Origin: Acidimicrobiales bacterium
GTDB taxonomy: Bacteria; Actinomycetota; Acidimicrobiia; Acidimicrobiales; Palsa-688
Reading direction: 5' to 3'
Assembly: GCA_049522375.1 (NCBI GenBank)
Contig: JBEKNX010000001.1
Span: 1 to 44,488, forward strand
DNA: 44,488 bases
Made by a program: the position numbers and the translations under genes. Below the pieces are notes generated by a model that saw nothing but the letters and a program-made list of their open reading frames with translations, searched no databases and was not told the origin of the DNA. How positions within the stretch are numbered: position 1 is the stretch's first letter; each line of letters begins with the position of its first letter. Positions 14,903 through 41,226 of this stretch are shown here, piece by piece.

Positions 14903-14936
14903 GTGGGGTACAGCGTGGCCGCCCGGCAACGGCTGG

Positions 14937-15587: not shown

Positions 15588-16334
15588 CTATCGTCCGGCC
15601 CGGGCCGGACCTTCCCACGCCGGCTCTACCGGACGGGCGACACCAGGTCCGACGGCCATCGGCGCGCCGCCGGTAGCAGGGGGCGGGCCAGCCGTGGCGC
15701 TGGCGCTGACAGCCGTGGCGCTGGCTCTGGCCGCCGCCGTGGGGGCTTCCGAAGGGCTCGACGGGACCTCGGCCCCGCCACCCCGGTCGGCGAAAACGAC
15801 GTGGTTGAAGATCACGAACTTCACGATCCACACCACGCCGTAGGCGAACAGCGACGCCCCCATGATGGCCAGCGCCCGGCCCAGCCCGTGGACGCCGTGG
15901 TGCTTGCACAGGCTGTCGGCGATCTCCACCGTCCCGGTCGAGGCCAGCCAGCCCAACAGGGTCAAAGACCAGAACGGTACGATCTCTCGCCACATGTGGC
16001 TCTTGCCGCTCTTGCCCCACGCCCACTTCCGGTTGAGCTCGTACGACGCCGGGGTCGCCATCACGGCGCCGATGGTGTTGGCCGCGATCCCCGACAGGCC
16101 GAAGACCCAGGCGCAGACCAGGATCGTCGCCTGGCTGATGACTATGGCCACCACCGAGACCATCGAGTACCGGATGAACTTGTGCATCGGCCGGTCGCCC
16201 CGGGTCGGGGAGAGCACCCGGTCCACTACCGGCAACCGGAGCACGCCCCGGACCAGGGGGGCGCGCCTCAGCCGGTCGTACAGACTGACGCGCTCGGCAC
16301 GACGCGGCGACGCGTCTGAACTGAGAGGCACCAC
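15588..16334 (-). CDS. GtrA-family membrane protein (polysaccharide/glycolipid synthesis associated)
   Basis: KFIRYSMVSVVAIVISQATILVCAWVF...NRKWAWG and four predicted hydrophobic segments. Start is GTG 16334 or ATG 16187. Has a low-complexity Ala/Pro/Ser C-terminal tail. Confidence 0.7.
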   Translation of the reverse strand: MVPLSSDASPRRAERVSLYDRLRRAPLVRGVLRLPVVDRVLSPTRGDRPMHKFIRYSMVSVVAIVISQATILVCAWVFGLSGIAANTIGAVMATPASYELNRKWAWGKSGKSHMWREIVPFWSLTLLGWLASTGTVEIADSLCKHHGVHGLGRALAIMGASLFAYGVVWIVKFVIFNHVVFADRGGGAEVPSSPSEAPTAAARASATAVSASATAGPPPATGGAPMAVGPGVARPVEPAWEGPARAGR

Positions 16335-21826: not shown

Positions 21827-22045
21827 CCACGAAATGATGGTTGGCCATATTCAGATTCTTCCCCATCTATGGGCTTTGTGTCCAGAGAAATCGCAAAACG
21901 AGAAGATCATGCCGGTTTGACCGGCCGAATGTCACTGTGCGTGGCCGTTTACAGGTCTGGGCCCGGCCGCTAACATTGTCTGAAGTTCGAGGTGGGCACC
22001 TGTCGAGTTCTTGGGCCGGCTGTCCCATCTCCGGAACGAGGCCGT

Positions 22046-22090
22046 TGAGCACGCAAGGACTGAGCACGCAAGGACTGAGCACGCAAGAAC
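22046..22090. repeat. 15-bp tandem repeat x3 (tgagcacgcaaggac)
   Basis: Units at 22046, 22061 and 22076; the third reads tgagcacgcaagaac. The array lies either in the 5' UTR or in an N-terminal extension (LSTQG x3) of the GGDEF-EAL gene. Confidence 0.85.
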
Positions 22091-22131
22091 AGGGGACAAC
22101 TAAGCCCGAGGGGCGCACGGGTCAGCTTTCG

Positions 22132-27475: not shown

Positions 27476-27739
27476 TTACGGCCCGGGTCGTCCTGCGTCG
27501 GGCGGGGCCGGGCGCCTCAGCGCCTTCAACGCCTCCAGCTCGGAGGCGGAGGTGGCGGAGGTGGCGGCCTGCCGGTTGGCGGCGGTGAGAGCGGCAAAGA
27601 CCTCTTCCCGGTGGACCTGGATCTCTTTGGGGGCAGTGATACCAAGACGCACCTGGTCCCCTCGGACCTCCAAGACGGTGACAACCACGTCGTGACCGAT
27701 AACGATGCTCTGATGGACGTGCCTGGTTAGCACCAGCAC
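27476..27739 (-). CDS. csrA: Carbon storage regulator / translational repressor CsrA
   Basis: 87 aa. MLVLTRHVHQSIVIGHDVVVTVLEVRGDQVRLGITAPKEIQVHREEV is the canonical CsrA fold sequence. GTG start with AAGGAG 6 nt upstream. Carries a roughly 35-aa C-terminal extension. Confidence 0.9.
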   Translation of the reverse strand: MLVLTRHVHQSIVIGHDVVVTVLEVRGDQVRLGITAPKEIQVHREEVFAALTAANRQAATSATSASELEALKALRRPAPPDAGRPGP

Positions 27740-27795: not shown

Positions 27796-28221
27796 CTAAG
27801 GGCGACTGACGATCGGGGCGGCGGGAGAGTGGCCCGAGCCGGACAGCACGGCTTGCACGGCCTGGCCCGTGGCCTTGTTGATCACCAACGGGCCAAGCAG
27901 GTTGGCGGTGCTCTTCTCCGCCGTGCCGTGCAGCGTGAGGATGACGAGGACCAGCACGTCGTCAGGACCGCCGGCATCCACCGCCGGGAAGACCTCCGGA
28001 GCGAACCGGGGTTCGTACCCGGGGAAGAAGACGGCCGGCCGTACAGCGACGAACCGCAGCCCGACCACCTCGTGGCACTCCAGGACTAAGAAGGGGCTCG
28101 GCTCGGTCCCCCATGGCTTGACGGTAAAGGACTTGGCCAGCGGGAAACCGGGTACACCGGCGGCGAAATGCAGCTCGGCGTGGTCCTGGTCCGTCTGGGG
28201 CAGCACGCTTATGGCCGTCAT
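27796..28221 (-). CDS. fliW: Flagellar assembly factor FliW
   Basis: 141 aa. FAAGVPGFPLAKSFTV, PFLVLE and ANLLGPLVIN are FliW motifs. ATGA overlap with the flgL stop. Confidence 0.9.
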   Translation of the reverse strand: MTAISVLPQTDQDHAELHFAAGVPGFPLAKSFTVKPWGTEPSPFLVLECHEVVGLRFVAVRPAVFFPGYEPRFAPEVFPAVDAGGPDDVLVLVILTLHGTAEKSTANLLGPLVINKATGQAVQAVLSGSGHSPAAPIVSRP

Positions 28222-29162
28222 GAGAGGAACTGCACTAGAGAGGGCTGGATGATCTTGGCCGTCGTTTCCAGCGCCGCCTGGTAGGACGTTTCCTCCAGGT
28301 CGAGCTGGGCGGCCACCTGGTCCTCGCTGGCGTCGGTCAGGTTGGCGACCTGGTCCTGAATGGCGGTGACCTTGTTGCTGACCACGGATGCGTCGGTGGC
28401 CAGGGAGGCTCCCAGGGCCCCGACGGTCCCCTGAGCCTGCGTGGCCGTATTTACGGCCGTCCGCAGTTGGCTGAGGTCCGAGCCGCTCAGCGCCGTGGTG
28501 TTGCCGTTGGCCAGGTCCTGAGAGATGGTGTCCAGCAAGGCGAACACACTGGTGGAGCCCGACCCGAAGACCTGTTGGCCAGTGAGGCTCACGTTGACGG
28601 TCTGGCCGGGCGAGACCACCCGGGTGACCGGCGTCGCGCCGCCGGCGTAGGCGTAGGCGACGTCGGCGTCGTAGGAGGAACTGGTGGGGTCGCTGACCCC
28701 GCTCGCCCCGCCCTGGGGGTAGGGCGCCACCCCGTACGTGCCCGAAAAGATGGGCCGGTTGTTGTACGTGGTCGAGGCCAGGCTCAAGAGCTCTTGCTTT
28801 ATGCTCAGGACCTCCTGGGACAGGGCCTGGCTGCCCCCGGGTTGGGCCGTGGTGTTGGCCCCGGAAAGTACGTCCGTTTGCACCTGGTCGAGGCCTTTGA
28901 CCACCGAGCCCAACGTGGTGTCGGCCGTGTTCAGCCAGGACTGGCCGTCGGAGATGTTGGAGGAGTACTGCTGGAAACGGCCGAGCTGAGCGTTGAGCGC
29001 CAGGACTTCGGAGGTACCGGCGGGGTTGTCGGAGGGCTGGTTGATGGCCTTGCCGGTAGCCGCCTCTTCCTGGAGCTGGGTGAGCTGGGAAAGGCCCGAC
29101 TGGAGGTCCGCCACCATCAGGATGGTGGCGCTCTGCTGGGTAACGCGGGAGACGTCGGACAT
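28218..29162 (-). CDS. flgL: Flagellar hook-associated protein 3 FlgL
   Basis: 314 aa. Flagellin-like N-terminus (LQEEAATGKAINQPSDNPAG) and C-terminus (TAKIIQPSLVQFLS). Positioned after flgK. Confidence 0.85.
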   Translation of the reverse strand: MSDVSRVTQQSATILMVADLQSGLSQLTQLQEEAATGKAINQPSDNPAGTSEVLALNAQLGRFQQYSSNISDGQSWLNTADTTLGSVVKGLDQVQTDVLSGANTTAQPGGSQALSQEVLSIKQELLSLASTTYNNRPIFSGTYGVAPYPQGGASGVSDPTSSSYDADVAYAYAGGATPVTRVVSPGQTVNVSLTGQQVFGSGSTSVFALLDTISQDLANGNTTALSGSDLSQLRTAVNTATQAQGTVGALGASLATDASVVSNKVTAIQDQVANLTDASEDQVAAQLDLEETSYQAALETTAKIIQPSLVQFLS

Positions 29163-29167
29163 GGCCG

Positions 29168-30637
29168 CTACCCGTTGACCATCGATACGAGGGACTGGAG
29201 GACGTCGTCGACGGTGCTTATGAACTTGGCCGAGGCGTCATAAGCGTTCTGGTACATGACCATGTTGGTCATCTCTTGGTCCGTGTTGACGCCGGTGGCC
29301 GACTGGAGCGCCGAATTGACGTTGGTCGTGACCGCTTGCTGGTTGGTCAGGCTGTTGTTGACCGTAGAAGTGGCCTGGCCTATCCCCGTCACGAGCTGGT
29401 TGTAAGCAACATCCGCCTCGGGCCCGGTGGTCGTGGAGGCACCGGTCCAGGACGTGGCTGACGCGCCGGCCGACCATCCGCCGGACGGCTCCCCAATAGT
29501 GACAGTTTGGGAGTTGGGCATTTCCCCGACCTCGGCGGCCAGGCTCCCGTCCTGGTTGGTGGCCGACGAGCCCGATGGTACGGGCGTGGACGCCGCGGCG
29601 ATGAGCGACGGGTCGGCGGCCACGGCCGGGTTCACTTCGATGTCAGAGGCCCCGGTGCCCAGGAAGAAAGGGGCCCCCGGGTTGCCGTTGAGGTCGTAAC
29701 CCGTGCTCATCAGGTAGTTGACCGAGCCCATGAGGCTCTGGGACACCTGGTCCAGGTCCTGTTGGTAGCCGGGGACGTACTGGTTGAGCACGGCCAGGTC
29801 CCCGGCCAGTTCCCCGCTGCTGGGCTGGAAACTCGACTGGTCCTGGCTCCACACCAGCGAATAGGGCGGCCCGCCGCTCGACAGGGACAGCGTCTGGGAA
29901 TTGACCCCGGACACCAGCGCTTCACTGCCGGCGTAGACGTTGGCCGTCCCGTTGGCGTTGTAGGTGACATTGACGCCCAGCTGGTTGGACAGCTGTGAGA
30001 TCAGCTGGTCGCGCTGGTCGGCCAGCTCGGCGGAGTTCGAACTGTCCGGCGAGGCCTGGAGCATCTGCTGGTTGAGCGAGGCTATCTGCGCCGCCTCCTG
30101 GTTGACCTGTGCCAGCGTGCTCGTCGTGGCCTGGACGGTCTGCTGGCCGAGCGTGTTGAGAGCGGCGGAGGTCTGGTTGAGCGACGAGGTGAGGCTGGCC
30201 GCGTCCTGGACCAGAGTCGAGCGGGTGGCGCCGTCGGACGGGTTGTTGGCCAGGGTCGACCAGTCCTGCCAGAACTGGTTGAGCTGGGACGATATCCCGG
30301 TCGTGGACGGCTCGGGGAAGTTCTCCTGCACGGCCTGGAGACCGGTTTGCTGGGCCGTGAGCATGCCCTGGTTGCCCTGCTCGGTATAGCTGCGCTGCTG
30401 CAGGTACGTGTTGCTGAGGCGCTGGATCCCCGCCACCTCGACACCGTCACCGGGTTGGGCAGACGCGCTCTGGTCGAAGCCCAGGTGCTGGACGGCGCCG
30501 ACCGCGCCGAGCTGGACCTGTTCTTCGACATAGCCCGGCGTGCTGGCGTTGGCAACGTTCTGGCCCACGGTGTCCAGGGCCACCTGCTGTGCCTCCAGCC
30601 CGGAGAGCCCGACGGTCAGGTCCGAAAAGTCGCTCAA
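29168..30637 (-). CDS. flgK: Flagellar hook-associated protein 1 FlgK
   Basis: 489 aa. TTG start with GAGGTGAT upstream. N-terminal GLSGLEAQQVALDTVGQNVANASTPGY rod/hook motif and C-terminal MVMYQNAYDASAKFISTVDDVL. Confidence 0.9.
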   Translation of the reverse strand: MSDFSDLTVGLSGLEAQQVALDTVGQNVANASTPGYVEEQVQLGAVGAVQHLGFDQSASAQPGDGVEVAGIQRLSNTYLQQRSYTEQGNQGMLTAQQTGLQAVQENFPEPSTTGISSQLNQFWQDWSTLANNPSDGATRSTLVQDAASLTSSLNQTSAALNTLGQQTVQATTSTLAQVNQEAAQIASLNQQMLQASPDSSNSAELADQRDQLISQLSNQLGVNVTYNANGTANVYAGSEALVSGVNSQTLSLSSGGPPYSLVWSQDQSSFQPSSGELAGDLAVLNQYVPGYQQDLDQVSQSLMGSVNYLMSTGYDLNGNPGAPFFLGTGASDIEVNPAVAADPSLIAAASTPVPSGSSATNQDGSLAAEVGEMPNSQTVTIGEPSGGWSAGASATSWTGASTTTGPEADVAYNQLVTGIGQATSTVNNSLTNQQAVTTNVNSALQSATGVNTDQEMTNMVMYQNAYDASAKFISTVDDVLQSLVSMVNG

Positions 30638-30649: not shown

Positions 30650-31168
30650 TCAGATCGTTTCGTTCACGAGAAGATGGCCGGCGGGGGACTGCGAAGCCAC
30701 GCCGGTCGACGTGTAGGCCTGGGCCGGGGGGCCGGCGTTGCCGGTGAGCCAGTTGAGCGCCTCCCGGGCCGCGTCCCGGCCCTTGGCCAGCAGATGGCGG
30801 TTGCGCTCGGACAGGTCACGCACTTCGCTCGTCAGCTCGAGGAACGCCTGGCGGTGGCGGGCAAAGATCGAAGACCACGGTTCAGGGGCGGCCTGGGAGA
30901 GCGAGCGCAGTCCCGGGTAGGAGGGGAGCCCGAGCTCTATGGCGGCGCCTTCCACCTTGACCGCCCGCAAGAGCTCGGCCGCTCGCAACTGGTCGAGCAC
31001 GATCTCGACCTCCCGGGAGGCGTGGTTGACCCACCTGGCCTTCCCGGCATTGAGGAGCAGCTGCTCTTCCTCCAGTTTGAACACGAGGAGCTCCAGCAGC
31101 TGCCGCTCGCGCCACAGCACGGTGGACACCTCGTTCAGGACCTGGTCTCGCTCGTCTCCTCGCTCCAC
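30650..31168 (-). CDS. flgN: FlgN-family flagellar export chaperone
   Basis: LNEVSTVLWRERQLLELLVFKLEEEQLLL is a typical FlgN N-terminus. The ORF is open to GTG 31237, but a sigma-28-like promoter inside that extension places the predicted TSS at GTG 31168. Confidence 0.75.
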   Translation of the reverse strand: MERGDERDQVLNEVSTVLWRERQLLELLVFKLEEEQLLLNAGKARWVNHASREVEIVLDQLRAAELLRAVKVEGAAIELGLPSYPGLRSLSQAAPEPWSSIFARHRQAFLELTSEVRDLSERNRHLLAKGRDAAREALNWLTGNAGPPAQAYTSTGVASQSPAGHLLVNETI

Positions 31169-31175
31169 ATGGGGT

Positions 31176-31203
31176 TCATCGGTACGGCCGGTCAGCACCT
31201 GAG
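31176..31203 (-). promoter_or_regulatory. Sigma-28-type promoter candidate for flgN-flgK-flgL-fliW-csrA (leaderless geometry)
   Basis: The minus strand reads CTCAG-N15-ACCGATGA-N7-GTG(31168). Confidence 0.5.
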
Positions 31204-31360
31204 GGCCCAAGAAGAGAAATCTCCGAAATTTCGCCACACTGAGAGAGATTCATGGGCTAAGTTGACCACACAACGTAGTATTCCGAGCCCGAAAACGGCG
31301 AAATAAGCGATTTCATATAGCTTCATTAGTTTTCGTGACTAGCCCATTTAGGTCACCCCG

Positions 31361-31373: not shown

Positions 31374-31402
31374 CTAAAGATCCGGGCCACCTGGCCCGAT
31401 GT
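31374..31402 (+). promoter_or_regulatory. Sigma-28-type promoter candidate upstream of fliA (autoregulation, leaderless geometry)
   Basis: CTAAA-N16-CCCGATGT-N6-GTG(31409). The distance from the pentamer start to the start codon is 35 nt, the same as at four other sites in the locus. Confidence 0.45.
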
Positions 31403-31408
31403 GACAAA

Positions 31409-32341
31409 GTGCCCTGGGGTCAGCCTGAGACTGGTGTCCGGACCGGCGGCCGTCGCGTCGCCGCTGGCAACTCCTCAGCCGTGCACGAGCAGGCCAAGGC
31501 GCAAGAAGAGCTCGTGCGTTCTCATTTGCCTCTGGTCAACTACATGGTCTCTGAGATCGCCGGGCGCATCCCCCGCCACGTCTGCCGTACCGACCTCGTC
31601 TCCGCCGGCATGGCCGGGCTGGCCCAAGCGGCCAAGTCGTACCAGCCCGGCCGGGGCGTCACGTTCCAGCGCTTCGCGTCCTCACGCATCCGGGGCGCCA
31701 TACTGGACGAGCTTCGTGCCCGCGACTGGGCCAGCCGGTCCGTGCGAGCCAAGGCCCGGGACCTGGCCCAGGTCACCGACAAACTGACGGCCAAGCTCGG
31801 GCGCCAGCCCTCGGCGGCCGAGGTCGCCGCGGTCATGGGTACCAGCGCCGACGAGCTCGATGCCCTAAACGCCGACGTCTACCGCGCCCTGGTCCTCAAC
31901 CTCGACGCCCTGCCGGTGGAGGGCAAGAGCGAGGAGAGCCTGTTCTCGGGCACTCCTGCGCCGGACGAGGACGTCCTCGACAACGAGAAGCGCGCTTACC
32001 TGGTGGCGGCCGTGGACAGCCTTCCCGAGCGCTTGCGCCGGGTGGTCGTCGGCTACTTCTTCGAAGAGCTGCCCATGCAGGTGCTGGCCGAGGAGCTGGG
32101 GGTCACGGACTCCCGCATCTCCCAGATGCGGGCCGAAGCCCTGGTGCTGTTGCGTGACGCCATCAATTCCCAGCTCGACCCGGACCTCGTCCAGCCCGAG
32201 GCCTCCGAGCGGGTGGCCAAGCGCCGCTACGCCTATTACGCCGCCGTGGCCGCCCATGACGACTACCGCCGGCGTCTCGACCCCTCGGCCGGCCAGCTCG
32301 CCAGCCTGGCCAAGCGCAACGACCTCGCCGCCCTGGCCTAA
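31409..32341 (+). CDS. fliA: FliA/WhiG-family (sigma-28) RNA polymerase sigma factor
   Basis: LVRSHLPLVNYMVSEIAGRIP (region 2), FQRFASSRIRGAILDELR, and MQVLAEELGVTDSRISQMRAEAL (region 4.2 HTH). Start is GTG 31409 (favoured by promoter geometry) or GTG 31481. About 55-60 residues follow region 4.2. Confidence 0.9.
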   Translation: MPWGQPETGVRTGGRRVAAGNSSAVHEQAKAQEELVRSHLPLVNYMVSEIAGRIPRHVCRTDLVSAGMAGLAQAAKSYQPGRGVTFQRFASSRIRGAILDELRARDWASRSVRAKARDLAQVTDKLTAKLGRQPSAAEVAAVMGTSADELDALNADVYRALVLNLDALPVEGKSEESLFSGTPAPDEDVLDNEKRAYLVAAVDSLPERLRRVVVGYFFEELPMQVLAEELGVTDSRISQMRAEALVLLRDAINSQLDPDLVQPEASERVAKRRYAYYAAVAAHDDYRRRLDPSAGQLASLAKRNDLAALA

Positions 32342-32416: not shown

Positions 32417-32444
32417 CTCAGGTGCCGCCCCCGGGTGCCGAGGG
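32417..32444 (+). promoter_or_regulatory. Weaker sigma-28-like promoter candidate for the first GT2-TPR gene
   Basis: CTCAG-N15-GCCGAGGG-N7-GTG(32452). The geometry is exact, but the conserved T of CGAT is replaced by G. Confidence 0.3.
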
Positions 32445-32451: not shown

Positions 32452-33582
32452 GTGAGGCTAGGCCTTTTGAGCGTTGTCATGCCTGCCTTCAACCCGGGCA
32501 GGTTTTTGTTGCCCGCGATCGAAAGCGTCCTGGGCCAAAGCTGGCAGGACCTCGAGCTCATCGTGGTCAACGACGGGTCAACCGACGGCTCGACGGAGAT
32601 CCTTTCTGCGGTCCGGGACCGTCGACTGCGGGTCATAAACCAGGAAAACGCCGGGGAAAGCGCGGCGCGCAACACTGGCCTGCAGCATTGCCAGGGCGAG
32701 TACATAATGTGGAACGATGCTGACGACATCTCGCTCCCCCACCGGGCCGCCACTCTCGTCGATGCCCTCGAAGGGTCAGCCGCCAGCTTTGCCCACTCCG
32801 ACATGCTCCTCGTCGACGCGGACGGAGCCCCGCTGGGGTACTGGCAGGCGGCACCGGTGCCCCCCGCCCGCATGCTCCAGTTCCTCCTGAGAGTCGGCAC
32901 GCCGTTCAACAACGCGTCCATGCTCGTGCGGGCCGAGGTCTTTTCCGGCTTGAGCTTCAACCGATCTTTGTTGATAGGCACCGACACAGACATGGTCCGC
33001 CAGTTCGCCCCCGAAAAGCCGGGCGTGTACGTGCCCGAGCCGCTCCTGCTCTACCGTCGGTGGGCTGGCACCGCCACCAATGGCGGCAGCTCGGCACAGG
33101 AGACGGACCAGGTCGAAGTACTGCTCGGGGCCCACAGTCCCGAAGAGCTCGTGCCAGAAGCGAAAACGGGGCGGGACCAAGAGTGCTGGCGTCCGGTGGC
33201 GCTTGCCCTGGTGGCGTTGGCATTGGTCCGTCGAGGACTTGTGGACAGTGGGGCCCGACGCCTGCAAGCCGCGGCGAGCGGCTGTCCTGAGGCCGCACGG
33301 CCCTTGGTGGCGGCAGTGGCCGCCTTGTGCGAAGGCAACCTTCGCAGCGCTGAGACTTGCCTTTCTCTTTGCGGTGACGGCGACGCCATCGCCGTGAACC
33401 TGAGGGGAGAGATCCACGCTCAACGCGGGGAGTGGACGGCAGCGACCGCCGCCTTCCGGGATGCGCTCGCCATCGACCCGTCCTACTACGAGCCCGTCCT
33501 CAACCTCCGAGGTGCAGGAGGGGCGAGAGGCATGAACCTGGTTGACCGCACGTGGGCTCGTTTTGTGCCCCGGGCGGCGTAG
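32452..33582 (+). CDS. Glycosyltransferase family 2 with C-terminal TPR-like region
   Basis: LSVVMPAFNPGRFLLPAIESVLGQSWQDLELIVVNDGSTDGS and NDADDIS (DxD) indicate a GT-A fold. The C-terminal GEIHAQRGEWTAATAAFRDALAIDPSYYEPVLNL is TPR-like. The ORF is open from GTG 32422. Confidence 0.8.
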   Translation: MRLGLLSVVMPAFNPGRFLLPAIESVLGQSWQDLELIVVNDGSTDGSTEILSAVRDRRLRVINQENAGESAARNTGLQHCQGEYIMWNDADDISLPHRAATLVDALEGSAASFAHSDMLLVDADGAPLGYWQAAPVPPARMLQFLLRVGTPFNNASMLVRAEVFSGLSFNRSLLIGTDTDMVRQFAPEKPGVYVPEPLLLYRRWAGTATNGGSSAQETDQVEVLLGAHSPEELVPEAKTGRDQECWRPVALALVALALVRRGLVDSGARRLQAAASGCPEAARPLVAAVAALCEGNLRSAETCLSLCGDGDAIAVNLRGEIHAQRGEWTAATAAFRDALAIDPSYYEPVLNLRGAGGARGMNLVDRTWARFVPRAA

Positions 33583-33586
33583 CCCT

Positions 33587-35362
33587 TCACGCCACCGCAG
33601 GGCCCGAGACGACAAACCACCGCGAGAACCGCGCCCCCGGGCCCAAGATCTCCAGGGCGCCGGCCAGGATCTCCCGCTCCTGTCCGGTGAGCCGGCCCGA
33701 CCGCACGGCTGCCCCCAGGCGCCAGAAGTCCGGGTGGTCCGGCCAGTCTTCAAGGGCCATCCTGACGATTGCCTCCGCCTTGTCCAACTGGCCCCCGGCT
33801 ATGAGCGCCAAGACCATCCAGCGGACTACTCCCGGTGCCTCCTCCTGTCCCGATTTCATGCTCTGCAGGACCCGCAACGCCGGTCCCGGTTGGCCTTTCA
33901 TGATCAAACGCTGAGCTCGTGCCAACCCGTCTTGTGCCTCGGCGGCGATGGGGTACTTTGTCATCACGGGCGACCAGAACCGGGCCCGGCCCGGGTGACC
34001 TGTGCCCCTTCTGGCCACGGTTACCCATTGGGCCTCGATCTGGCCGGCGCCGACGTCTCTTAAGACCGGGAACTGCGCCTCCATTTCGTGGCACCGGGGC
34101 AGGAAGCCCAGGAGGTGGTCCAACTCTTTCGGTTCGATCGTCTTCGCGAGATCGGGATCTATTTCCCACTCACCGGGCTTCGAAGCCGGCGCGACGGTGG
34201 TGGCCGCTAAATCCGCGTAGTAGCGGTGCAGTTCCTGAATGGTTGCCGGCCACGAGAACCGTTGCGCCGTCTGCAAACCGCCGCTCCGGCACCGGGCGCG
34301 TAGCCCGCCGTCGCTCAGCATGGCCTGGATCCCCTCGGCCAGAGCCTTGGGGTCCCGGAGCGGCACAACGAACGAGTTCTCGCCGTGACGGACATACTCG
34401 AGGGCTCCCACGTTGGCGGTCGTGACGACGGGTGTGCCGCACGCCATAGCCTCCAGGGGCGGGAGCGGGAACGACTCGTAATGCGAGGCGCAAACGTAAA
34501 CCGCCGCCTGGCGGTACAGGCAGGCGAGGGCTGGCTGGCTGGGTGAGACAACTACGGTCCCGGCGGGCCGGGCAGGCGGGCGCGGAGTCACCCAGACCAA
34601 TCGGAGCCCGGGGTCGTCGGCTTTCAACAGGTCCCACGCTCTCAGCGCGTCCGCGATCCCCTTGAACTCCTGGCCATCCCAACCGACCAACAGCATGTAC
34701 CGGTCAGCCTCTTTAGTCGCAGGGCGGGCCCCAGGGCAGAACACGTCGAGGTCCACCGCGTTGTGGAACACGTGGGCGCGGATGCCGTAACGGTCGTGAA
34801 GGACCCGAGAGGTCTGCTCACTTACCGTAATGGTACGGTCTGCTGCATCAAGATGGTCCTGTACGAACTGCCGTACGTCGGGGCTCAGCTCCTCGTAAAG
34901 GTGGAAATCGCCCTGCTCGAAGTGGACGACAGGAGCGAGGCCCGTTGCCCTGGCGTCGATAACCTGGTCCCAGTACCCGGCGACTATCACGTCGGTCGGA
35001 GGGATCGCGTCGGACAGGCGCAACCCGAACGGGACACGGACGAAGGGAGCGTCAAGCTGCACCCAGCCCGGGCGGGGCCCGTGGGACACGACCGTGACTT
35101 GGTTACCGATCGCTTGTAAGCGGGAGGCGTGCTCGACCAGCACCCTCGCGCCCCCGCCGACGTCTGTTCGGGGCATTAAGTAGCAGATCCGCACGGGACC
35201 GACCTTTGGTCGGGGGCGTAGTGGGGGCAGGTGGCCGCTGTGCCCCACCATTTCGCGCAGCTCCCCTCCGTTGCGCCCACGGGCGGAGGCGAGCGCTTTA
35301 TCCAGAAGAGAGGGAGTGAAGAGATGACCAAGGCCAGAGGCCCGCCCGGCGGTTCGGTCCAC
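33587..35362 (-). CDS. Glycosyltransferase (GT-B, family 4/1) with C-terminal TPR-like region
   Basis: VRICYLMPRTDVGGGARVLVEHASRL and ESFPLPPLEAMACGTPVVTT indicate GT-B. The C-terminus is helical-repeat (KGQPGPALRVLQSM..., LIAGGQLDKAEAIVRMALEDWPDHPDFW). GTG 35362 is favoured by promoter geometry; the alternative is ATG 35251. Confidence 0.8.
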   Translation of the reverse strand: MDRTAGRASGLGHLFTPSLLDKALASARGRNGGELREMVGHSGHLPPLRPRPKVGPVRICYLMPRTDVGGGARVLVEHASRLQAIGNQVTVVSHGPRPGWVQLDAPFVRVPFGLRLSDAIPPTDVIVAGYWDQVIDARATGLAPVVHFEQGDFHLYEELSPDVRQFVQDHLDAADRTITVSEQTSRVLHDRYGIRAHVFHNAVDLDVFCPGARPATKEADRYMLLVGWDGQEFKGIADALRAWDLLKADDPGLRLVWVTPRPPARPAGTVVVSPSQPALACLYRQAAVYVCASHYESFPLPPLEAMACGTPVVTTANVGALEYVRHGENSFVVPLRDPKALAEGIQAMLSDGGLRARCRSGGLQTAQRFSWPATIQELHRYYADLAATTVAPASKPGEWEIDPDLAKTIEPKELDHLLGFLPRCHEMEAQFPVLRDVGAGQIEAQWVTVARRGTGHPGRARFWSPVMTKYPIAAEAQDGLARAQRLIMKGQPGPALRVLQSMKSGQEEAPGVVRWMVLALIAGGQLDKAEAIVRMALEDWPDHPDFWRLGAAVRSGRLTGQEREILAGALEILGPGARFSRWFVVSGPAVA

Positions 35363-35369
35363 GAGGGTC

Positions 35370-35397
35370 CGATCGGCCGGTCGCTGGCCCTTCTTAG
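35370..35397 (-). promoter_or_regulatory. Sigma-28-type promoter candidate for the GT4-TPR gene (leaderless geometry)
   Basis: The minus strand reads CTAAG-N15-GCCGATCG-N7-GTG(35362). The 8-mer is identical to the fliC one. Confidence 0.5.
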
Positions 35398-35406
35398 TCG
35401 CGCCAG

Positions 35407-35434
35407 CTCAAGTCTGGGCCCGAGCGGACGATCG
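35407..35434 (+). promoter_or_regulatory. Sigma-28-type promoter candidate for the second GT2-TPR gene (leaderless geometry)
   Basis: CTCAA-N15-GACGATCG-N7-ATG(35442). Confidence 0.5.
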
Positions 35435-35441
35435 GGATTGC

Positions 35442-37172
35442 ATGAGCCCCGTCGCGGACCGAGGACGGAAGGGCCGGCCACGACCCGCTAAGCGCCTATG
35501 CCGGGGCGGGGCCGCCGCCTCCGGCAGCAGGGCCGGGATCCTTATTTCCGCCTGCCTGATCGTAAAGGACGAGGAAGAGGCTTTGCCTTTATGCCTGGCC
35601 TCCTTGGACCGGTTGGTGGACGAGGTCGTTGTCTATGACACCGGGTCTACCGACGCCACCGTGGAATTGTCCCGGCAAGCCGGTGCCAGGGTCATCGAGG
35701 GCTACTGGGACGACGATTTCGGACGCGCCCGCAACGCCAGCCTTGAGCATTGCCGGGGCGAATGGATCCTGTGGATAGACGCCGACGAGCGTTTCGTATG
35801 CCCCGACGCCCGGGAGCTCCGGGGAGCTCTCCCCCTGCTCAAAGGCGTCGACGCCCTCCTTGTCGCCATCTCCAACTTCGGTGGGGACGGAACGGCCGTG
35901 TCCGGTGCGCACCGAGCCTTCCGCCTGTTCCGTAAAGCCACCTGCCAGTGGTACGGCGCCCTTCACGAGCAGGTCGACCTGCGCCCGGGCTTTAACCGTG
36001 AGGTGATCGCCAGCCCCCTAAAGGGTGCGCACATAGAGCACTACGGGTACTTGGACGAGGTCGTAAAAGAGCGGGACAAGTCGTCACGGAACCTTCGCAT
36101 AGCCGAGGCCGCGGTGGCGAGGGGCACGGCAAGACGTGGCGAGGAAGGTATGCACGAGCTCAATCTGGCCCGGGCCCTGGCCGCCATGGGCAAGATCGAG
36201 GAGGCGCAGCCCCATTTCGACAAAGCGGTGGCGACCGCCCACGACGGCCTCCCCCTGCGAGCCTGCCTCTTGTATGGTGCGCAAAACCTTGTGGCGCTGG
36301 GACGCCTGGAGGAAGCGGTGGCGGCCGCCCAGCGCCTCCAGGAGATGTGTGAACAAAAAGACCTGGCCTACTATATAGAAGGGACGGCGCACCGGCGCCT
36401 GGGTCGACCAGGACCAGCCGTCGCCCTTTTCGACCGGGTCAGCGAGCTCGCTAACGAAGACGGCTTCAGGTTCCCGCTTTTCATGCTGCACGCCGAGCGA
36501 GCCGGCGCCCTTCTGGAGGCGGGCCGGGCGGCGGAGGCGGCAGACGAACTCGTGGTCTTGGTGGAACAGAACCCGGACGTCCAGCACATCACCGCTGCCC
36601 TCAAGGCCTTTACCGTAGCCGGGAAGTCGATAGATTCCCTCGTCGCGGCGATGCCCGCCGACCGCCTCGAAAGAGTGGGCGCCGCGCTTACGCTGGTGCC
36701 GCCGGAGGTGGCAGACCAGATGGCGGAGGCCCTGTGGGTGCGCTTCGGCACCCGGCCCCAACTGCTGGCCGCCTCTATACGCTTCGCTCCCCGGCTCGGC
36801 GCGTCCCGGGCACTGGAGTGGTCAGTGCGACTGCGCTCGATCGGCATGGCCGCCTGCTGCCCGCTCCTGGCCCGGGCCACCCTCGACGAGGTGGCCGCAG
36901 CTGAACGGGTCCGGGCCGGCGTCACCGCCCACGCCGCCTTTGCCGACCCGAAAGGGGCCGAGCTTGCCCTGGCCGCGGTCAGCCTGGTTGCCGCCGAGGA
37001 GCTCGAAGCCGTCCTGTCCGAAGTCGCCTTGATGGACCCACCTCTTCTTGGCGAATTCGCTGCCGCCGCGGGCAGGAGCGACCGGGAAATGAGCGCGCAA
37101 GTCGAGAATGGCGCATTGTCGGAAGACGGGGTACCCGCTCCTCAACTGGCCTCTCTCGGTGCCGATCGCTAA
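35442..37172 (+). CDS. Glycosyltransferase family 2 with long C-terminal TPR region (GmaR-like architecture)
   Basis: ISACLIVKDEEEALPLCLASLDRLVDEVVVYDTGSTDAT and WIDADERF (DxD) indicate GT-A. About 350 aa of helical/TPR-like repeats follow. Lies immediately upstream of fliC. Confidence 0.8.
   Translation: MSPVADRGRKGRPRPAKRLCRGGAAASGSRAGILISACLIVKDEEEALPLCLASLDRLVDEVVVYDTGSTDATVELSRQAGARVIEGYWDDDFGRARNASLEHCRGEWILWIDADERFVCPDARELRGALPLLKGVDALLVAISNFGGDGTAVSGAHRAFRLFRKATCQWYGALHEQVDLRPGFNREVIASPLKGAHIEHYGYLDEVVKERDKSSRNLRIAEAAVARGTARRGEEGMHELNLARALAAMGKIEEAQPHFDKAVATAHDGLPLRACLLYGAQNLVALGRLEEAVAAAQRLQEMCEQKDLAYYIEGTAHRRLGRPGPAVALFDRVSELANEDGFRFPLFMLHAERAGALLEAGRAAEAADELVVLVEQNPDVQHITAALKAFTVAGKSIDSLVAAMPADRLERVGAALTLVPPEVADQMAEALWVRFGTRPQLLAASIRFAPRLGASRALEWSVRLRSIGMAACCPLLARATLDEVAAAERVRAGVTAHAAFADPKGAELALAAVSLVAAEELEAVLSEVALMDPPLLGEFAAAAGRSDREMSAQVENGALSEDGVPAPQLASLGADR
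37141..37168 (+). promoter_or_regulatory. Sigma-28-type promoter candidate for fliC
   Basis: CTCAA-N15-GCCGATCG, inside the last codons of the upstream GT gene. The predicted TSS near 37176 gives a roughly 69-nt leader. Confidence 0.5.
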
Positions 37173-37201
37173 AACGTCCCGACAATGGGACCTACAACAC
37201 A

Positions 37202-37241
37202 GGGGCGCTCACGGATGGGCCCCTTCTGACCCCATGGAGGA
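37202..37241 (+). promoter_or_regulatory. Putative CsrA binding sites in the fliC leader (hairpin-loop GGA plus SD-overlapping GGA)
   Basis: The stem ggggc (37202-37206) / gcccc (37219-37223) presents a gctcACGGAtgg loop with GGA at 37213-37215. A second GGA at 37236-37238 lies inside the ATGGAGGA Shine-Dalgarno, 4 nt before ATG 37245. Confidence 0.5.
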
Positions 37242-37244
37242 AAA

Positions 37245-38066
37245 ATGGGTCTCGATATCGTAACCAACATAATGGCGCAGGACGCCTCGAACAGCCTCTC
37301 GATCAACGAGGCGAATATGCAGAACAGCGTGCAGAAGCTGTCTTCTGGCTACCAGATCAACAAGGCCGCCGACGACGCGTCTGGCCTCGTCATCAGCCAG
37401 CACCTGCAGTCCCAGATCGGTGGCTTCCAGCAGGCGCAAGCCAACACCCAGAGCGCCATCAACGTCGTCCAGACGGCCGACGGCGCCCTGAACGAGGTCG
37501 GCACCATCCTGCAGCGCATCAACACCCTGACCGTCGAATCCCAGAACACCACGGCTACTGACGCCACCGCCCAGACGGCGGCGCAGGACGAGGTCAACGC
37601 CTCGCTGCAGTCGCTCAACGACATCGCCAATACGACCGTCTATGGCAACAATCAGCTGCTGACCGCCAGCGGCGGCGTGGTGACCTTCGCCTTCCAGGTC
37701 GGCGCCGACGAATCGGGCTACAGCCAGCTCAGCTTCACCTTTGGTGCTCTTTCGGTGAGCGGTCTCTCGCTAACCGGCTTCTCAGTGACCAGTGCGACAG
37801 CCCTTACTAGTGTTCAGACCGCCATCGACAACGTCTCCGGCCTCAGAGGCACGCTCGGCGCCTACCAGAACGAGCTGCAGCACATCTCGGACAACGAAGG
37901 CGTCATGGTCCAGAACCTGCAAGCCTCCAACGCCCAGATCGAAGACACCAACATGGCGTCGGAGATGTCCAACTTCACCCAGGACCAGGTCCTCGTGCAA
38001 GCAGGTGTGTCCATGCTGGCACAGGCCAACCAGATACCCGATTACGTGCTCAAGCTGCTCGGCTAA
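37245..38066 (+). CDS. fliC: Flagellin
   Basis: 273 aa. N-terminal NSVQKLSSGYQINKAADDASGLVISQ and C-terminal MSNFTQDQVLVQAGVSMLAQANQIPDYVLKLLG are the conserved flagellin D0/D1 termini. The central region is short and Ser/Thr-rich. Confidence 0.95.
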   Translation: MGLDIVTNIMAQDASNSLSINEANMQNSVQKLSSGYQINKAADDASGLVISQHLQSQIGGFQQAQANTQSAINVVQTADGALNEVGTILQRINTLTVESQNTTATDATAQTAAQDEVNASLQSLNDIANTTVYGNNQLLTASGGVVTFAFQVGADESGYSQLSFTFGALSVSGLSLTGFSVTSATALTSVQTAIDNVSGLRGTLGAYQNELQHISDNEGVMVQNLQASNAQIEDTNMASEMSNFTQDQVLVQAGVSMLAQANQIPDYVLKLLG

Positions 38067-38187: not shown

Positions 38188-40779
38188 ATGTCGGTCAGCA
38201 GCAGTGGCTCGACCTCACAAGAGCTCGGTTACCTCAACACGGCGCAATCGCTGGCCACGCTCATGGGCACCAGTGACACCGCCTACAGCGCCGGCGGCCC
38301 CCCCCTCACCCTGAGCGGCCTCGCCTCGGGCCTCGACACAGCCCAGATCGTGGCCGACCTCATGCAGGCGAACGAGCAACCCCAGGTACAGCTCCAAGAC
38401 CAGCTCAACCAGGCTTCCGCCGTTATGGCCGCGTACCAGAACATCTCTACCGACGTAGCTACACTTCAGTCGGCGGCGGACACCCTGGAGTCCCCCTCGG
38501 GGTGGCAGGCCTGGATCCCCAACTCCTCGACAAACGACGCCACGGCCACGGTGGGCCCGGGCGCCACCGGCGGATCCATCACCTTTAGCGTCGACTCCCT
38601 GGCCCAGGCCGAATCAGAGATCTCGTCCGGCAGCGTCAGCTCGCAAACAGCGCAGATAACCAGCGGCCCCCTGCTGGTGGCGGTGGGCGGCGGGCGCCTG
38701 GGCATCGGCACCCTCGCCTCTTCGAACCTGTCCGCCGGTAACCACACGATCGCCGTCACTCAAGCGTCGGCAGGGGCCTCGCTCGCAGCCACGGTGGCAC
38801 CCGCCGCTTCCACCACGATTACTGCCGGCAGCAACGACACTCTGACCTACGACCTGGACGGCACGCCCGAGTCTCTCACCATCCCGGCCGGGACCTACAC
38901 GCCGACCACCCTGGCCGCGGCCGTGCAGACCGCCTCAGGAGGCCAGCTCACGGCCTCGGTCAACTCCTCGGGCGACGTCGTGCTCAACACCGTCGCCCAG
39001 GGCAGCGGCACGTCCCTGCAGATCACCGGCGGCGACGCGGCCGCCGCGCTCAGGTTTTCGGCCACCCCGAGCATCACCGCTACGGGCACCGACGGGATCG
39101 TGACGGTCGACGGGGTCGCCAATGACCTCACCAACTTTTCTCCCGGCCAGGCCGTGACCCTCAACGGGCCGAGCGGCGCCACGGTTTCCGCCACCTTCAC
39201 CGGGCCGCTGACAGTCGGCTCGCTGACCGCGGCCGAGGTGAACACGGGCAATGGCAGCCTGCAGTCGGTCGTGAGCGCCATAAACGGTGCCGGGCTAGGC
39301 ATATCGGCCAGCGCGGTGACCACCGGCGCCAACGAGTACCGCCTTTCCCTCCAGTCGACTTCGTCGGGCGCCGCCAACACGCTGAACATCGCCACCGATG
39401 CGTTCTCGGGGGTCGGTGCCCTGACCACGGTCACGGCGGCCGCCGACGCCGCCATTACGGTAGGCAACGGCCCGGGCGCCTTCCAGGTGACCAATAGCTC
39501 CAACAGCATCACCGGGTTGATGCCCGGGGTTACCCTCGACCTGCTCCAGGCCGACCCCGGTACTCAGACGACGGTCTCACTGCAACCCGATGGGCAGACG
39601 ATGGCCACGACGGTGCAGAGCCTGGTAACGGCGGCCAACCAGTTGATCACCGACCTTAATACGGCCACCGCGTACGCGCCGTCCAGTTCCTCGCCGGACA
39701 GCTCATCGAGCTCCGGCACGGCTGGCCCGCTGCTTGGCGACCCCACCGCCGAGGGCCTGCTCGACTCCGTGCTCTCCGCCATCGGCGACCAGGCCGGGGT
39801 CAACAGCACGGGCTCGTCGGGCCTGGTGGGCATAACCATGAACGAGGACGGGACCTTGAGCTTCGACAGCAACGCCTTCGCGAAGGCTTACGACGCCAAC
39901 CCCACTCAGGTCGCCAACACCTTCATTACCGGCGGCTCCAGCTCCAGTCCGCTCATGTCCTTCTATGAGTCCACCGACGCCACCGCCACCGGGGACTACC
40001 AGGTGGACGTGACCCAGGCTGGCACCCAAGCCACCGACACGGGGGCGGCGGTGGCGGGTGGGGCGGTGAGCACGCCCGAGACGCTCACCGTCGCCTCAGG
40101 CAGTGTCAGCGCTAGCTACACCACGACCGCCGGGGAGTCCCTCGACGACGTCGCCGCCGGTCTCAACCAGGCGTTCTCCGCCCAGAACCTTGCCGTCAAC
40201 GCCGCCGTGCTAAACGGCGCCCTGGTGCTGAACAGCATGGCTTATGGCTCGGCGTCGTCCTTTACTGTCACCTCGACCGCTTCCGGTGCTGGGACGACCG
40301 GCCTCACCTCGGCCACGGGCACGCCGCAGACGTTCACCGGTACCGACGTCCAGGGCACGATCAACGGCCAGGCGGCCACCGGAACGGGCCAGCTCCTCCT
40401 GGGAGCCGCCAACAGTTCGGCCCAAAACCTGCTCGTGCTCGTGAACGCCACGCCTGCCCAGCTGGCGTCCAGCGGGGGCACGGCCAGCGGCACCATCAGC
40501 TATCAGCCCGGGATCGCCCAGGCTCTGGCCACCGCCGCCTACGCCGCCGGCAACCCCGGCACGGGGACGCTGACCAACGCCATCAGCGGCGAACAGAGCC
40601 AGATGAGCGACCTCTCGACCCAGATCTCGGACTGGAACCCCATACTCCAGGAGAAGCAGACCCAGCTCGAAAACCAGTACAACGCCATGGAAACCACCCT
40701 GGCAGCGCTCAAGACCACCCAGAACGCACTAACCGAGTACTTCAACCAAGCCTCCAACAGCTCGAGTAGCTCAGGCTGA
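38188..40779 (+). CDS. fliD: Flagellar filament cap protein FliD (unusually long)
   Basis: 863 aa. N-terminal LSGLASGLDTAQIVADLMQANEQPQVQLQDQ and C-terminal QISDWNPILQEKQTQLENQYNAMETTLAALKTTQNAL are FliD N/C domains. The central region, about 600 aa, is rich in Ser/Thr/Gly/Ala. Confidence 0.9.
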   Translation: MSVSSSGSTSQELGYLNTAQSLATLMGTSDTAYSAGGPPLTLSGLASGLDTAQIVADLMQANEQPQVQLQDQLNQASAVMAAYQNISTDVATLQSAADTLESPSGWQAWIPNSSTNDATATVGPGATGGSITFSVDSLAQAESEISSGSVSSQTAQITSGPLLVAVGGGRLGIGTLASSNLSAGNHTIAVTQASAGASLAATVAPAASTTITAGSNDTLTYDLDGTPESLTIPAGTYTPTTLAAAVQTASGGQLTASVNSSGDVVLNTVAQGSGTSLQITGGDAAAALRFSATPSITATGTDGIVTVDGVANDLTNFSPGQAVTLNGPSGATVSATFTGPLTVGSLTAAEVNTGNGSLQSVVSAINGAGLGISASAVTTGANEYRLSLQSTSSGAANTLNIATDAFSGVGALTTVTAAADAAITVGNGPGAFQVTNSSNSITGLMPGVTLDLLQADPGTQTTVSLQPDGQTMATTVQSLVTAANQLITDLNTATAYAPSSSSPDSSSSSGTAGPLLGDPTAEGLLDSVLSAIGDQAGVNSTGSSGLVGITMNEDGTLSFDSNAFAKAYDANPTQVANTFITGGSSSSPLMSFYESTDATATGDYQVDVTQAGTQATDTGAAVAGGAVSTPETLTVASGSVSASYTTTAGESLDDVAAGLNQAFSAQNLAVNAAVLNGALVLNSMAYGSASSFTVTSTASGAGTTGLTSATGTPQTFTGTDVQGTINGQAATGTGQLLLGAANSSAQNLLVLVNATPAQLASSGGTASGTISYQPGIAQALATAAYAAGNPGTGTLTNAISGEQSQMSDLSTQISDWNPILQEKQTQLENQYNAMETTLAALKTTQNALTEYFNQASNSSSSSG

Positions 40780-40803: not shown

Positions 40804-41226
40804 ATGCCCCCCACCCGTGCCCGCAGCACCTACCTCGCCAACGCCGTCGCCGGCGCGCCCCGTGAACGGCTCTTGACGATGCTCTACGACGCCCTCCTCA
40901 ACAACATCGTGGTGGCCGAAGATGCCATGGAACGCAAGGACTTCTACACCCTCAACGAGCGTTTGCTGCGGGCCGAGGAGATAGTCCTGGTGCTGCGCGG
41001 CTCCTTGAAGCCCGAGATCTGGTCCGGGGGCCCGGCGCTCATGTCCCTGTACAACTACGTGTACAAGCTGCTGGTGCGGGGCAACACCCACAAGGATGCC
41101 CGTGCCCTGTCCGATGCCCGCAAGGTGCTGGAGCCCCTCCAGGCCGCATGGCATGTTGCCGCCGACCAGGTCCTGGCCGAGAGGGCCGGGGCCCCTCAGC
41201 GGGCGGGGGCCGCGCTCAGTGCGTGA
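40804..41226 (+). CDS. fliS: Flagellin-specific export chaperone FliS
   Basis: 140 aa. RERLLTMLYDALLNNIVVAEDAME and GGPALMSLYNYVYKLLVRGN match the FliS four-helix pattern. Confidence 0.85.
   Translation: MPPTRARSTYLANAVAGAPRERLLTMLYDALLNNIVVAEDAMERKDFYTLNERLLRAEEIVLVLRGSLKPEIWSGGPALMSLYNYVYKLLVRGNTHKDARALSDARKVLEPLQAAWHVAADQVLAERAGAPQRAGAALSA

Follow-up and report, generated by a model that had tools for sequence, protein, structure and literature searches.

The 44,488-nt stretch of DNA analyzed here (the window; contig JBEKNX010000001.1 of assembly GCA_049522375.1, G+C content about 68%) stems from an uncultured Acidimicrobiales bacterium represented by a metagenome-assembled genome (MAG). 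Between its sigma-28 factor gene fliA and its flagellin gene fliC lies an island of three glycosyltransferase genes which, judged from sequence, very probably constitutes a flagellin-glycosylation module. Based on open reading frame (ORF) listing as well as Pfam and NCBIfam scans, the interval contains exactly three genes, all of them encoding glycosyltransferases, and no further credible ORF was found between fliA and fliC. Gene GT1 (32452-33582, plus strand) encodes an enzyme of glycosyltransferase family GT2 with a short tetratricopeptide repeat (TPR) region, gene GT2 (33587-35362, minus strand) a GT4/GT-B enzyme with a beta subdomain and a TPR-like tail, and gene GT3 (35442-37172, plus strand) a family GT2 enzyme in which TPRs and a helical C-terminal domain follow. 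Gene names are used here also for the encoded proteins, and "family GT2" always refers to the enzyme family. A first-pass annotation of the same DNA had described three glycosyltransferases and nothing else from fliA to fliC, which is borne out at these positions, and had read them as a flagellar glycosylation module. That reading is favored because GT3 is homologous to GmaR and syntenic with fliC, because sigma-28-type promoters precede the transferase genes and because homologues of GT1 and gene GT2 are linked to flagellar genes in other Actinomycetota and in Paenibacillus.

Residues 34-222 of GT3 match the glycosyltransferase domain of GmaR (PDB 22ao) with an E-value of 1.5e-30, or 1e-48 when a 43-sequence family profile is used, and the identity of GT3 and GmaR is about 40% across 182 amino acids (aa). 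The same residues also match the glycocin S-glycosyltransferases SunS and ThuS (E 1e-10 to 1e-11). The catalytic motif D113-A-D115-E116 is invariant in 43 homologues; in databases, GT3 homologues are annotated merely as glycosyltransferases of uncultured Acidimicrobiales. Apart from a Glycos_transf_2 domain, Pfam recognizes a TPR_2 repeat at 33.6 bits (cut-off 27). The AlphaFold2 (AF2) model of GT3 (pLDDT 87.6, pTM 0.80) consists of a GT-A domain followed by 17 helices, and its best Foldseek matches are SunS and ThuS (E 1e-14, TM-score (TMt) 0.70), next to which the TPR superhelix of OGT was returned. GmaR itself was not returned by Foldseek against the PDB, where entry 7x9r lay outside the top 50 and 22ao seems to be newer than the structure library; hence, the comparison of GT3 with GmaR rests on sequence and profile searches. 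Given the matches to GmaR and to SunS/ThuS in sequence and fold, GT3 would fall into the protein- or peptide-directed branch of family GT2 and not among enzymes using lipid-linked or polysaccharide acceptors. The earlier remark that the layout of GT3, a family GT2 domain plus TPRs, recalls Listeria GmaR has thus gained substance from the homology of the catalytic domains, with TPRs directly following in GT3. GT3 is proposed to initiate the O-glycosylation of flagellin and to serve as the island's conserved anchor.

The position of GT3 is conserved as well. A synteny comparison with relatives, already proposed in the first-pass annotation, was carried out by searching the window proteins with tblastn against 80 related loci from a species-representative genome set, all of them belonging to Acidimicrobiia or to unresolved Actinomycetota. 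A GT3 homologue is located at most 6 kb from fliC in 66 of the 80 loci and at most 1.6 kb away in 62; GT3, fliC and fliD follow each other in this order on one strand in 29 loci, and the GT3 homologue and fliC are divergent neighbors in 35. Loci in which fliC is missing near the GT3 homologue are mostly short contigs. The remainder of the interval behaves differently: contrary to a first impression, the three genes do not form one fixed set, as only GT3 is conserved in position. Three of the closest relatives (L002, L003 and L019), with flagellar proteins 75-94% identical to those of the window, carry an unassigned 310-aa protein, an 827-aa double GT4 enzyme or other genes between fliA and GT3, while the whole trio recurs with fliC in L087 (plus a fourth transferase) and in L072. 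Across the clade, the gap between fliA and GT3 measures between about 1.7 and 7.5 kb and is filled with differing glycan genes. The enzymes of these sister islands comprise GT17-like, GT2_5 and double GT4 transferases and a 1029-aa GT4-methyltransferase-GT4 protein, accompanied by TylF-like, FkbM-like, O-methyltransferase-like and other methyltransferases as well as by UDP-galactopyranose mutase (Glf) and UDP-glucose dehydrogenase. The fliA-fliC interval therefore presents itself as a putative hypervariable glycosylation island with one fixed enzyme, GT3. GT1 and gene GT2 would form an exchangeable cassette within it, so that the glycan is expected to differ between close relatives.

Two further features of the sister islands were recorded. 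A protein of about 310 aa is encoded directly 3' of fliA in nine of them (e.g., L002 339-1331, L003 5815-6747, L006 6469-7344 and L007 7780-8742, plus five other loci); it matched neither a Pfam family nor a PDB sequence and could represent a so far undescribed transferase of flagellin glycosylation or an accessory protein of that process. Moreover, flagellin size varies within the clade: flagellins of 273-276 aa that have no outer domains are encoded in the window, L002, L019 and L087, and that of L003 is represented by an 834-bp tblastn match (about 278 aa), while those of L004-L017 measure 376-600 aa and contain a central insert, the glycosylation gene content shifting alongside.

Regulation of the island was approached by aligning the 110 nt upstream of fliC from 17 loci (the window and 16 relatives). 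The resulting consensus, CTCA(A/G)-N15-GCCGATC(G), appears to be the lineage version of the sigma-28 consensus TAAA-N15-GCCGATAA. Within the window, only three sites deviate from it by at most one mismatch, namely those in front of fliC, GT3 and gene GT2, compared to a chance expectation of 0.74. A looser pattern with two mismatches is not enriched (16 sites found versus 10.2 expected), so only stricter or composite promoter forms are informative. The fliC promoter (37141-37167, plus strand) matches the consensus exactly, and its -10 element overlaps with the terminal codons of GT3 (..G-A-D-R-stop), which would explain the C-terminal G-A-D-R conserved among GT3 homologues. The 79 bp separating the divergent genes GT2 and GT3 (35363-35441) harbor, according to the consensus scan, two back-to-back sigma-28-type promoters with at most one mismatch each, one for gene GT2 (35371-35397, minus strand) and one for GT3 (35407-35433, plus strand), with 8-base -10 elements that reach one base past these coordinates. 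GT1 is preceded by the sigma-28-like element CTCAG-N15-GCCGAGGG-N7-GTG (32417-32443, with the region extending to 32451, plus strand), which has two mismatches and is the weakest of the three. In all three transferase genes, the 8-base -10 element is followed after exactly 7 nt by the start codon (GTG at 32452, GTG at 35362 and ATG at 35442, respectively). A composite motif made up of the -35 element, N15, at least six of eight matches in the -10 element, N7 and a start codon occurs three times in the window, each time at a transferase start, while Markov simulations predict 0.08 occurrences and none of 300 simulations reached three.

The arrangement extends to neighboring genes and to relatives. 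A similar element, CTAAA-N15-GCCCGATG-N7-GTG (31374-31411, plus strand), with a poorer -10 element, precedes fliA and would imply positive autoregulation. A sigma-28-like motif is likewise found in front of flgN (31168-31203, minus strand), with 7 nt between the -10 element and the start codon GTG at 31168; translation from this codon yields a protein of 172 aa as in relatives, instead of the 195 aa of the longest ORF. The orthologous locus L087, whose glycosyltransferases are 75-85% identical to those of the window, has kept all of these promoters (GT1 site at 11140-11166) and shows one more in front of its extra transferase gene. Additionally, the geometry of the GT3 promoter and start codon is conserved in L001, L009 (with a TTG start), L012, L014, L017 and L019. 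Sigma-28 transcription usually begins 7-8 nt past the -10 element, and leaderless mRNAs are common in Actinomycetota. Taken together with the 7-nt spacing, the usual start position makes leaderless mRNAs the likely reading, and the three transferase genes are suggested to be transcribed in this form; fliC, unlike these genes, has a conserved leader of about 70 nt. Co-regulation of the transferase genes with the late flagellar genes is thus supported at the level of promoter motifs. The earlier claim of a sigma-28-like promoter at each transferase gene stands for gene GT2 and GT3, while the GT1 site is weaker, albeit kept in L087.

The promoter positions also bear on gene starts. Shorter versions of the three genes from metagenome gene calling (367, 491 and 522 aa) were rejected, and the longer coordinates given above are considered right. 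In case of gene GT2, the 491-aa call was discarded because the first Rossmann strand (a beta-alpha unit) of the GT4 domain would be lost, and the long start is further backed by a high-confidence N-terminal helix (residues 17-39) in the AF2 model. The long starts keep the conserved spacing of 7 nt to the -10 element, and retention of the reading frame through a 75-nt indel in L087 favors them as well.

The two accessory transferases are distinct in fold and predicted stereochemistry. GT1 is recognized by Pfam as Glycos_transf_2 (PF00535, 1.5e-29), i.e., as an inverting GT-A enzyme of family GT2, and in its motif D89-A-D91-D92 residues D91 and D92 are invariant, and D89 and A90 nearly so, among 33 full-length homologues. 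These homologues measure about 370 aa. While TPR matches of the single GT1 sequence remain below Pfam cut-offs, positions 220-353 of the family profile match the TPRs of OGT, consensus-TPR proteins, PEX5 and APC7; hence, the predicted short C-terminal TPR region is taken as real. Gene GT2 contains Glycos_transf_1 and Glyco_transf_4 domains according to Pfam, with TPR_14 just over the cut-off, and its E-x7-E motif (E296-E304) is invariant in 39 homologues. The AF2 model (pLDDT 91.2, pTM 0.91) displays a two-Rossmann GT-B body together with the N-terminal helix, a beta subdomain (426-468) and helical hairpins (473-573), and its top Foldseek matches are the retaining GT4 enzymes BshA, MshA and PimA (TMt 0.72-0.76). 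GT1 is proposed as a glycan-elongating enzyme, and gene GT2 as a retaining GT4/GT-B enzyme with the same role in glycan elongation. The earlier statement that each transferase has a C-terminal TPR-like region could be upheld on different grounds for each protein, namely by the profile for GT1, by the AF2 model and TPR_14 for gene GT2 and by TPR_2 for GT3.

Relatives and more distant bacteria connect the three families physically. In relatives, a single 983-aa polypeptide combines GT4, a GmaR-like family GT2 domain and TPRs and is encoded directly upstream of fliC, and many GT2-TPR-GT2 or larger fusions of 750-1850 aa occur in more distant relatives. Full-length homologues of gene GT2 (about 585 aa) are found in Dactylosporangium species, Krasilnikovia, Paenibacillus, Mesobacillus and Bacillus. 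The homologue of Dactylosporangium matsuzakiense lies among other transferases between rod genes and fliC-fliD-fliS, and in Paenibacillus sp. JDR-2 the flagellin gene is followed by a GT3-like GT2-TPR gene and then by the gene GT2 homologue. One metagenome contig carries a gene GT2 homologue inside a flagellar cluster, and in other MAGs homologues of gene GT2 or GT1 adjoin fliS and fliD. Homologues from the two families were placed in the flagellar loci L085, L086, L087, L091 and L092. As homologues of GT1 and gene GT2 also occur away from flagella, the two families are not flagellum-specific; the non-flagellar Bacillota loci carry a GT3-like enzyme as well, which indicates a protein-glycosylation set whose three families move together. 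GT1 and gene GT2 are hence best seen as members of such a set, often but not always flagellar. One of the loci, that of Halobacillus yeomjeoni (L088, GCA_015905325.1, 1-12300), encodes all three families and a polysaccharide pyruvyl transferase among Ena/A_ENA endospore-appendage genes, which hints that Ena fibers may be glycosylated by a related cassette.

A broader, speculative and on the whole doubtful generalization would be a portable fiber-glycosylation cassette. It would consist of a GmaR/SunS-type initiator, a family GT2-TPR enzyme of about 370 aa and a GT4-TPR enzyme of about 585 aa serving different Gram-positive surface filaments, which in Acidimicrobiales would have been wired to FliA in leaderless form, would be recruited by a 95-aa docking module not described before and would produce a rapidly diversifying coat. 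If true, the cassette would act on flagella in Actinomycetota and Paenibacillus and on Ena appendages or other fibers in Bacillota, and the diversification of the flagellar glycan coat could possibly be under phage or predator selection.

The presumed acceptor is FliC (37245-38066, plus strand; Pfam Flagellin_N and Flagellin_C), a flagellin of only 273 aa that has no outer domains. Its residues 91-210 contain 20-30% Ser+Thr. The filament cap protein FliD (863 aa; 38188-40779, plus strand; FliD_N and FliD_C) with 27.5% Ser+Thr is a candidate second acceptor. N-linked glycosylation via NxS/T sequons was considered and rejected, since no enzyme of GT41/NGT or oligosaccharyltransferase type is present and sequons occur at ordinary frequency; the NTT and NAS sequons that had been pointed out earlier in flagellin are therefore irrelevant, none of the three enzymes belonging to an N-glycosylating family. 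Sugar-nucleotide biosynthesis genes were not detected among the 29 window proteins scanned against Pfam, a scan outside of which smaller ORFs remained. Likewise, no Pse/Leg/Neu genes and no Maf or FlmG transferase were detected by Pfam in these or in the sampled sister-island proteins, in agreement with the first-pass statement that the window holds no pse/leg/neu genes. The suggestion made there of a common housekeeping sugar also fits: because pse/leg/neu genes are missing from the window and sister islands encode Glf, UDP-glucose dehydrogenase and methyltransferases, common sugars, not nonulosonic acids, would fit the data.

On this basis, we infer a mechanism including the acceptor, the order of action, the sugars, the O-linkage, leaderless transcription and FliA dependence. 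FliA would switch on fliC and the three transferase genes together from individual promoters, the latter as leaderless mRNAs. The TPRs and C-terminal helical repeats of GT3 would hold unfolded or chaperone-bound flagellin in the cytoplasm prior to export, and GT3 would move the first sugar, most likely HexNAc (N-acetylhexosamine) or hexose, from a common UDP-sugar to Ser/Thr in the exposed central FliC segment. GT1 (inverting) and gene GT2 (retaining) would then lengthen it to a short O-linked oligosaccharide, with their repeat domains keeping both enzymes on flagellin or on GT3.

Several observations weigh against this interpretation. The GT1 promoter taken alone is weak, as two mismatches do not rise above chance. 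The N7 spacing rule was seen after the fact on the transferase genes themselves, which renders the composite-motif test partly circular; independent support beyond this test comes from the conservation of the promoters in L087 and the six other loci. The Ser/Thr richness that had been highlighted earlier for the flagellin center and FliD is confirmed as a matter of composition, but it is weak evidence, since FlgK and FlgL likewise contain 22-23% Ser+Thr and the richness is generic to axial flagellar proteins. The donor sugar, moreover, is not readable from sequence. Most of the remaining objections concern GT1 and gene GT2 and could also mean that only GT3 acts on flagellin, the other two being a mobile cassette for another target (a surface fiber or protein, or an envelope glycan) that landed in a permissive variable spot. 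The pair is missing at this site in L002, L003 and L019 and must be dispensable for flagellar function as such; the best PDB matches of GT1 are polysaccharide-type family GT2 enzymes; GT1 and gene GT2 homologues sit side by side in Bacillota loci (Halobacillus, Mesobacillus and a Firmicutes MAG) with zero flagellar genes within 8 kb, those of Halobacillus among Ena genes; and the G+C content at third codon positions (GC3) is 0.78-0.79 in the three transferase genes versus 0.85-0.90 in the flanking flagellar genes, a difference that could reflect either weaker expression or acquisition of the island by lateral transfer. Yet both genes have a sigma-28-type promoter that shares its N7-start geometry with those of GT3 and flgN and is kept in L087, and both proteins contain protein-interaction repeats. 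Their homologues are part of flagellar clusters in Dactylosporangium, Paenibacillus and other MAGs, and relatives encode the GmaR-like enzyme in fusion with GT4 and GT2 domains. The non-flagellar Bacillota loci cut both ways: they are the main reason for leaving some weight to a GT3-only activity on flagellin, and the GT3-like enzyme they contain argues that all three families belong together. All in all, a flagellin-directed role of GT3 alone is regarded as unlikely.

Very unlikely is also that the three enzymes initiate independently on different flagellar proteins (FliC, FliD, FlgK, FlgL) or sites instead of building one chain. Each of the three comes with a separate repeat domain and promoter, and FliD, FlgK and FlgL are as Ser/Thr-rich as FliC, but protein or peptide acceptors have been demonstrated only for the family of GT3, and GT1 and gene GT2 are absent from relatives with nearly identical FliD, FlgK and FlgL. 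The GT4/GT2 fusions to the GmaR-like enzyme, together with the sequential precedent of Clostridium difficile (PMC5207246), favor a single chain. A bifunctional GT3 that, like Listeria GmaR, would both glycosylate flagellin and sequester a flagellar repressor via its C-terminal helical domains, as the first-pass annotation had considered conceivable, is judged highly improbable. Its gross layout does correspond to that of GmaR, with a transferase domain, TPRs and a further all-helical region (PMC9638930), its gene is placed next to fliA, and its C-terminal 150 residues are strongly conserved within the lineage. However, the match of the GT3 profile to GmaR141-637 (7x9r, 503 residues) covers only residues 8-129, i.e., the first TPRs, and does not include the linker and antirepressor domains (GmaR residues about 400-630); 7x9r is not found among the top 50 Foldseek matches, either. 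No MogR-like protein was detected by Pfam among the scanned proteins of the window, and reports of MogR are confined to Listeria and the Bacillus cereus group (PMC7793685). The catalytic residues of GT3 are, furthermore, invariant. Finally, GT3 residues 428-524 (36723-37013, plus strand) form a helical module of about 95 aa with the motif WSxRLRxxG....CPL, which hhalign identifies as homologous to the N-terminus of GT17-like transferases (probability 96.9%, E 1.5e-10, 96 columns; pairwise BLASTP 7e-4) encoded in sister islands (L008 3619-4833, L004 7931-9100, L011 1312-2613 and L013 6281-7429). No Pfam family was assigned to it in scans of GT3 and of the GT17-like protein. As the module is common to two unrelated transferase classes of the island, it is more easily explained as a putative docking domain for flagellin, for the flagellin chaperone or for a partner enzyme than by repressor capture. 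Nothing supports a moonlighting of GT3 as regulator, and the preferred reading remains that of an initiating transferase, GT3, with GT1 and gene GT2 extending the glycan on flagellin.

The island is embedded in a flagellar block. On its 5' side, Pfam/NCBIfam and ORF scans identified csrA (27476-27739), fliW (27796-28221), flgL (28218-29162), flgK (29168-30637) and flgN (30650-31237 as longest ORF), all on the minus strand, followed by the fliA/whiG-type sigma-28 factor gene (31409-32341, plus strand; NCBIfam FliA_WhiG 7.3e-55; Pfam sigma-70 regions 2, 3 and 4). Downstream of fliD, fliS (40804-41226, plus strand; Pfam/ORF scans) is followed by probable rod genes, as judged from orthologous contigs. 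A scan of 30.5-41.5 kb for sigma-70 promoters and terminators returned zero sigma-70-like promoters, and terminator-like sites were no commoner than in shuffled sequences; operon boundaries could therefore not be drawn from it. A 956-aa GGDEF-EAL protein is encoded just 5' of the flagellar block. With this protein included, other genes of the window are located at 3858-5066 (minus), 6071-7219 (plus), 13481-15277 (minus), 15588-16334 (minus) and 21841-24711 (plus); they encode, besides, an ISAZ013-type DDE transposase and an HNH endonuclease protein, and another GT4 transferase that adjoins a GtrA-like membrane protein and is probably involved in an envelope glycan. The 5' leader of fliC (37176-37244) is conserved in 17 loci and displays a GGA in a GC-rich hairpin loop and a second GGA in the Shine-Dalgarno region, although its fold z-score amounts to only -1.6. 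This layout of two GGA motifs is that of the CsrA binding sites of Bacillus hag mRNA and, with csrA and fliW encoded nearby, suggests that a FliW-CsrA-flagellin partner switch may operate in Acidimicrobiales.

Much is known about flagellin glycosylation in Proteobacteria and in a few Firmicutes. For Actinomycetota or Acidimicrobiia, no description was found in the literature searched. The earlier view that a triple TPR-glycosyltransferase set is uncharacterized in high-GC Gram-positives therefore stands with respect to Actinomycetota, but a three-transferase flagellin system as such is known from C. difficile type B. The kind of system is hence already known, and the core assignment will be unsurprising to specialists, while its details are useful. 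New are the host phylum, the island anchored by a GmaR-type enzyme, the individually promoted and apparently leaderless sigma-28 units, the shared 95-aa module and the occurrence of the three-family set in two phyla. The locus and its roughly 80 relatives predict that flagellin glycosylation is the rule in flagellated Acidimicrobiia and also occurs in zoospore-forming Micromonosporaceae. With one conserved initiator beside hypervariable elongators, some of them fused to single polypeptides, the lineage represents a clean natural experiment from which one could learn how glycan diversity evolves and in what way TPR-bearing transferases recognize a folded protein. A compact regulatory design would be added by sigma-28 transcripts that each have a promoter of their own and apparently lack a leader. 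GmaR-like enzymes may, moreover, lend themselves to engineering protein glycosylation in the cytoplasm with ordinary UDP-sugars.

Compared with known systems, GT3 is close in design to Listeria monocytogenes GmaR, the MogR anti-repressor that attaches beta-O-GlcNAc to flagellin (PMC9638930; GlcNAc, N-acetylglucosamine). Both have a homologous N-terminal family GT2 domain with the DxD motif kept, followed by TPRs and helical repeats, and both genes lie within a flagellar cluster, the acceptor flagellin being proposed for GT3. Unlike GmaR, GT3 has no detectable linker/antirepressor domain and no MogR partner in the window, shares its C-terminal module with other island transferases and has a sigma-28-type promoter and an actinobacterial host. 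It is also accompanied by two more transferases, so that an oligosaccharide is to be expected instead of the single GlcNAc of GmaR. The substrates of SunS and ThuS are Cys residues of small bacteriocin peptides, and both enzymes are encoded in bacteriocin clusters. The GT3 model, like these enzymes, pairs a GT-A domain with a C-terminal helical-repeat domain, which in SunS/ThuS grips the peptide or protein substrate, but GT3 is larger and flagellin-linked. The mechanism proposed here parallels the C. difficile type B scheme, in which the enzymes there named GT1, GT2 and GT3 act sequentially on flagellin (PMC5207246), and GT3 parallels the initiating GlcNAc transferases GmaR and CD0240, the latter from C. 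difficile type A flagellin (PMC4441256). Compared by description, the C. difficile locus is likewise Gram-positive, with several glycosyltransferase genes adjoining fliC, one initiator that places HexNAc on Ser/Thr, others that extend it, as is proposed here, and a glycan varying between strains; there, however, the genes are located downstream of fliC, and in the window no sugar-modifying or biosynthetic genes stand alongside the transferases. Caulobacter FlmG, whose N-terminal TPR precedes a domain transferring pseudaminic acid (PMC7591256), and Maf offer, again by description, a precedent for flagellin recognition by TPRs and cytoplasmic transfer before export, and gene GT2 resembles FlmG in joining a transferase domain to TPR-type repeats, with the differences that the TPRs are C-terminal here and that nonulosonic-acid genes are missing from the scanned window and the sampled sister islands. 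Finally, the islands of Pseudomonas, Campylobacter, Aeromonas and Geobacillus (PMC5109656, PMC7874193) also consist of a variable glycosylation block beside flagellin within the flagellar regulon, from which the acidimicrobial island differs by other enzyme families, a GmaR-type anchor, a host from the Actinomycetota and a putatively leaderless sigma-28-type promoter for each of its transferases.

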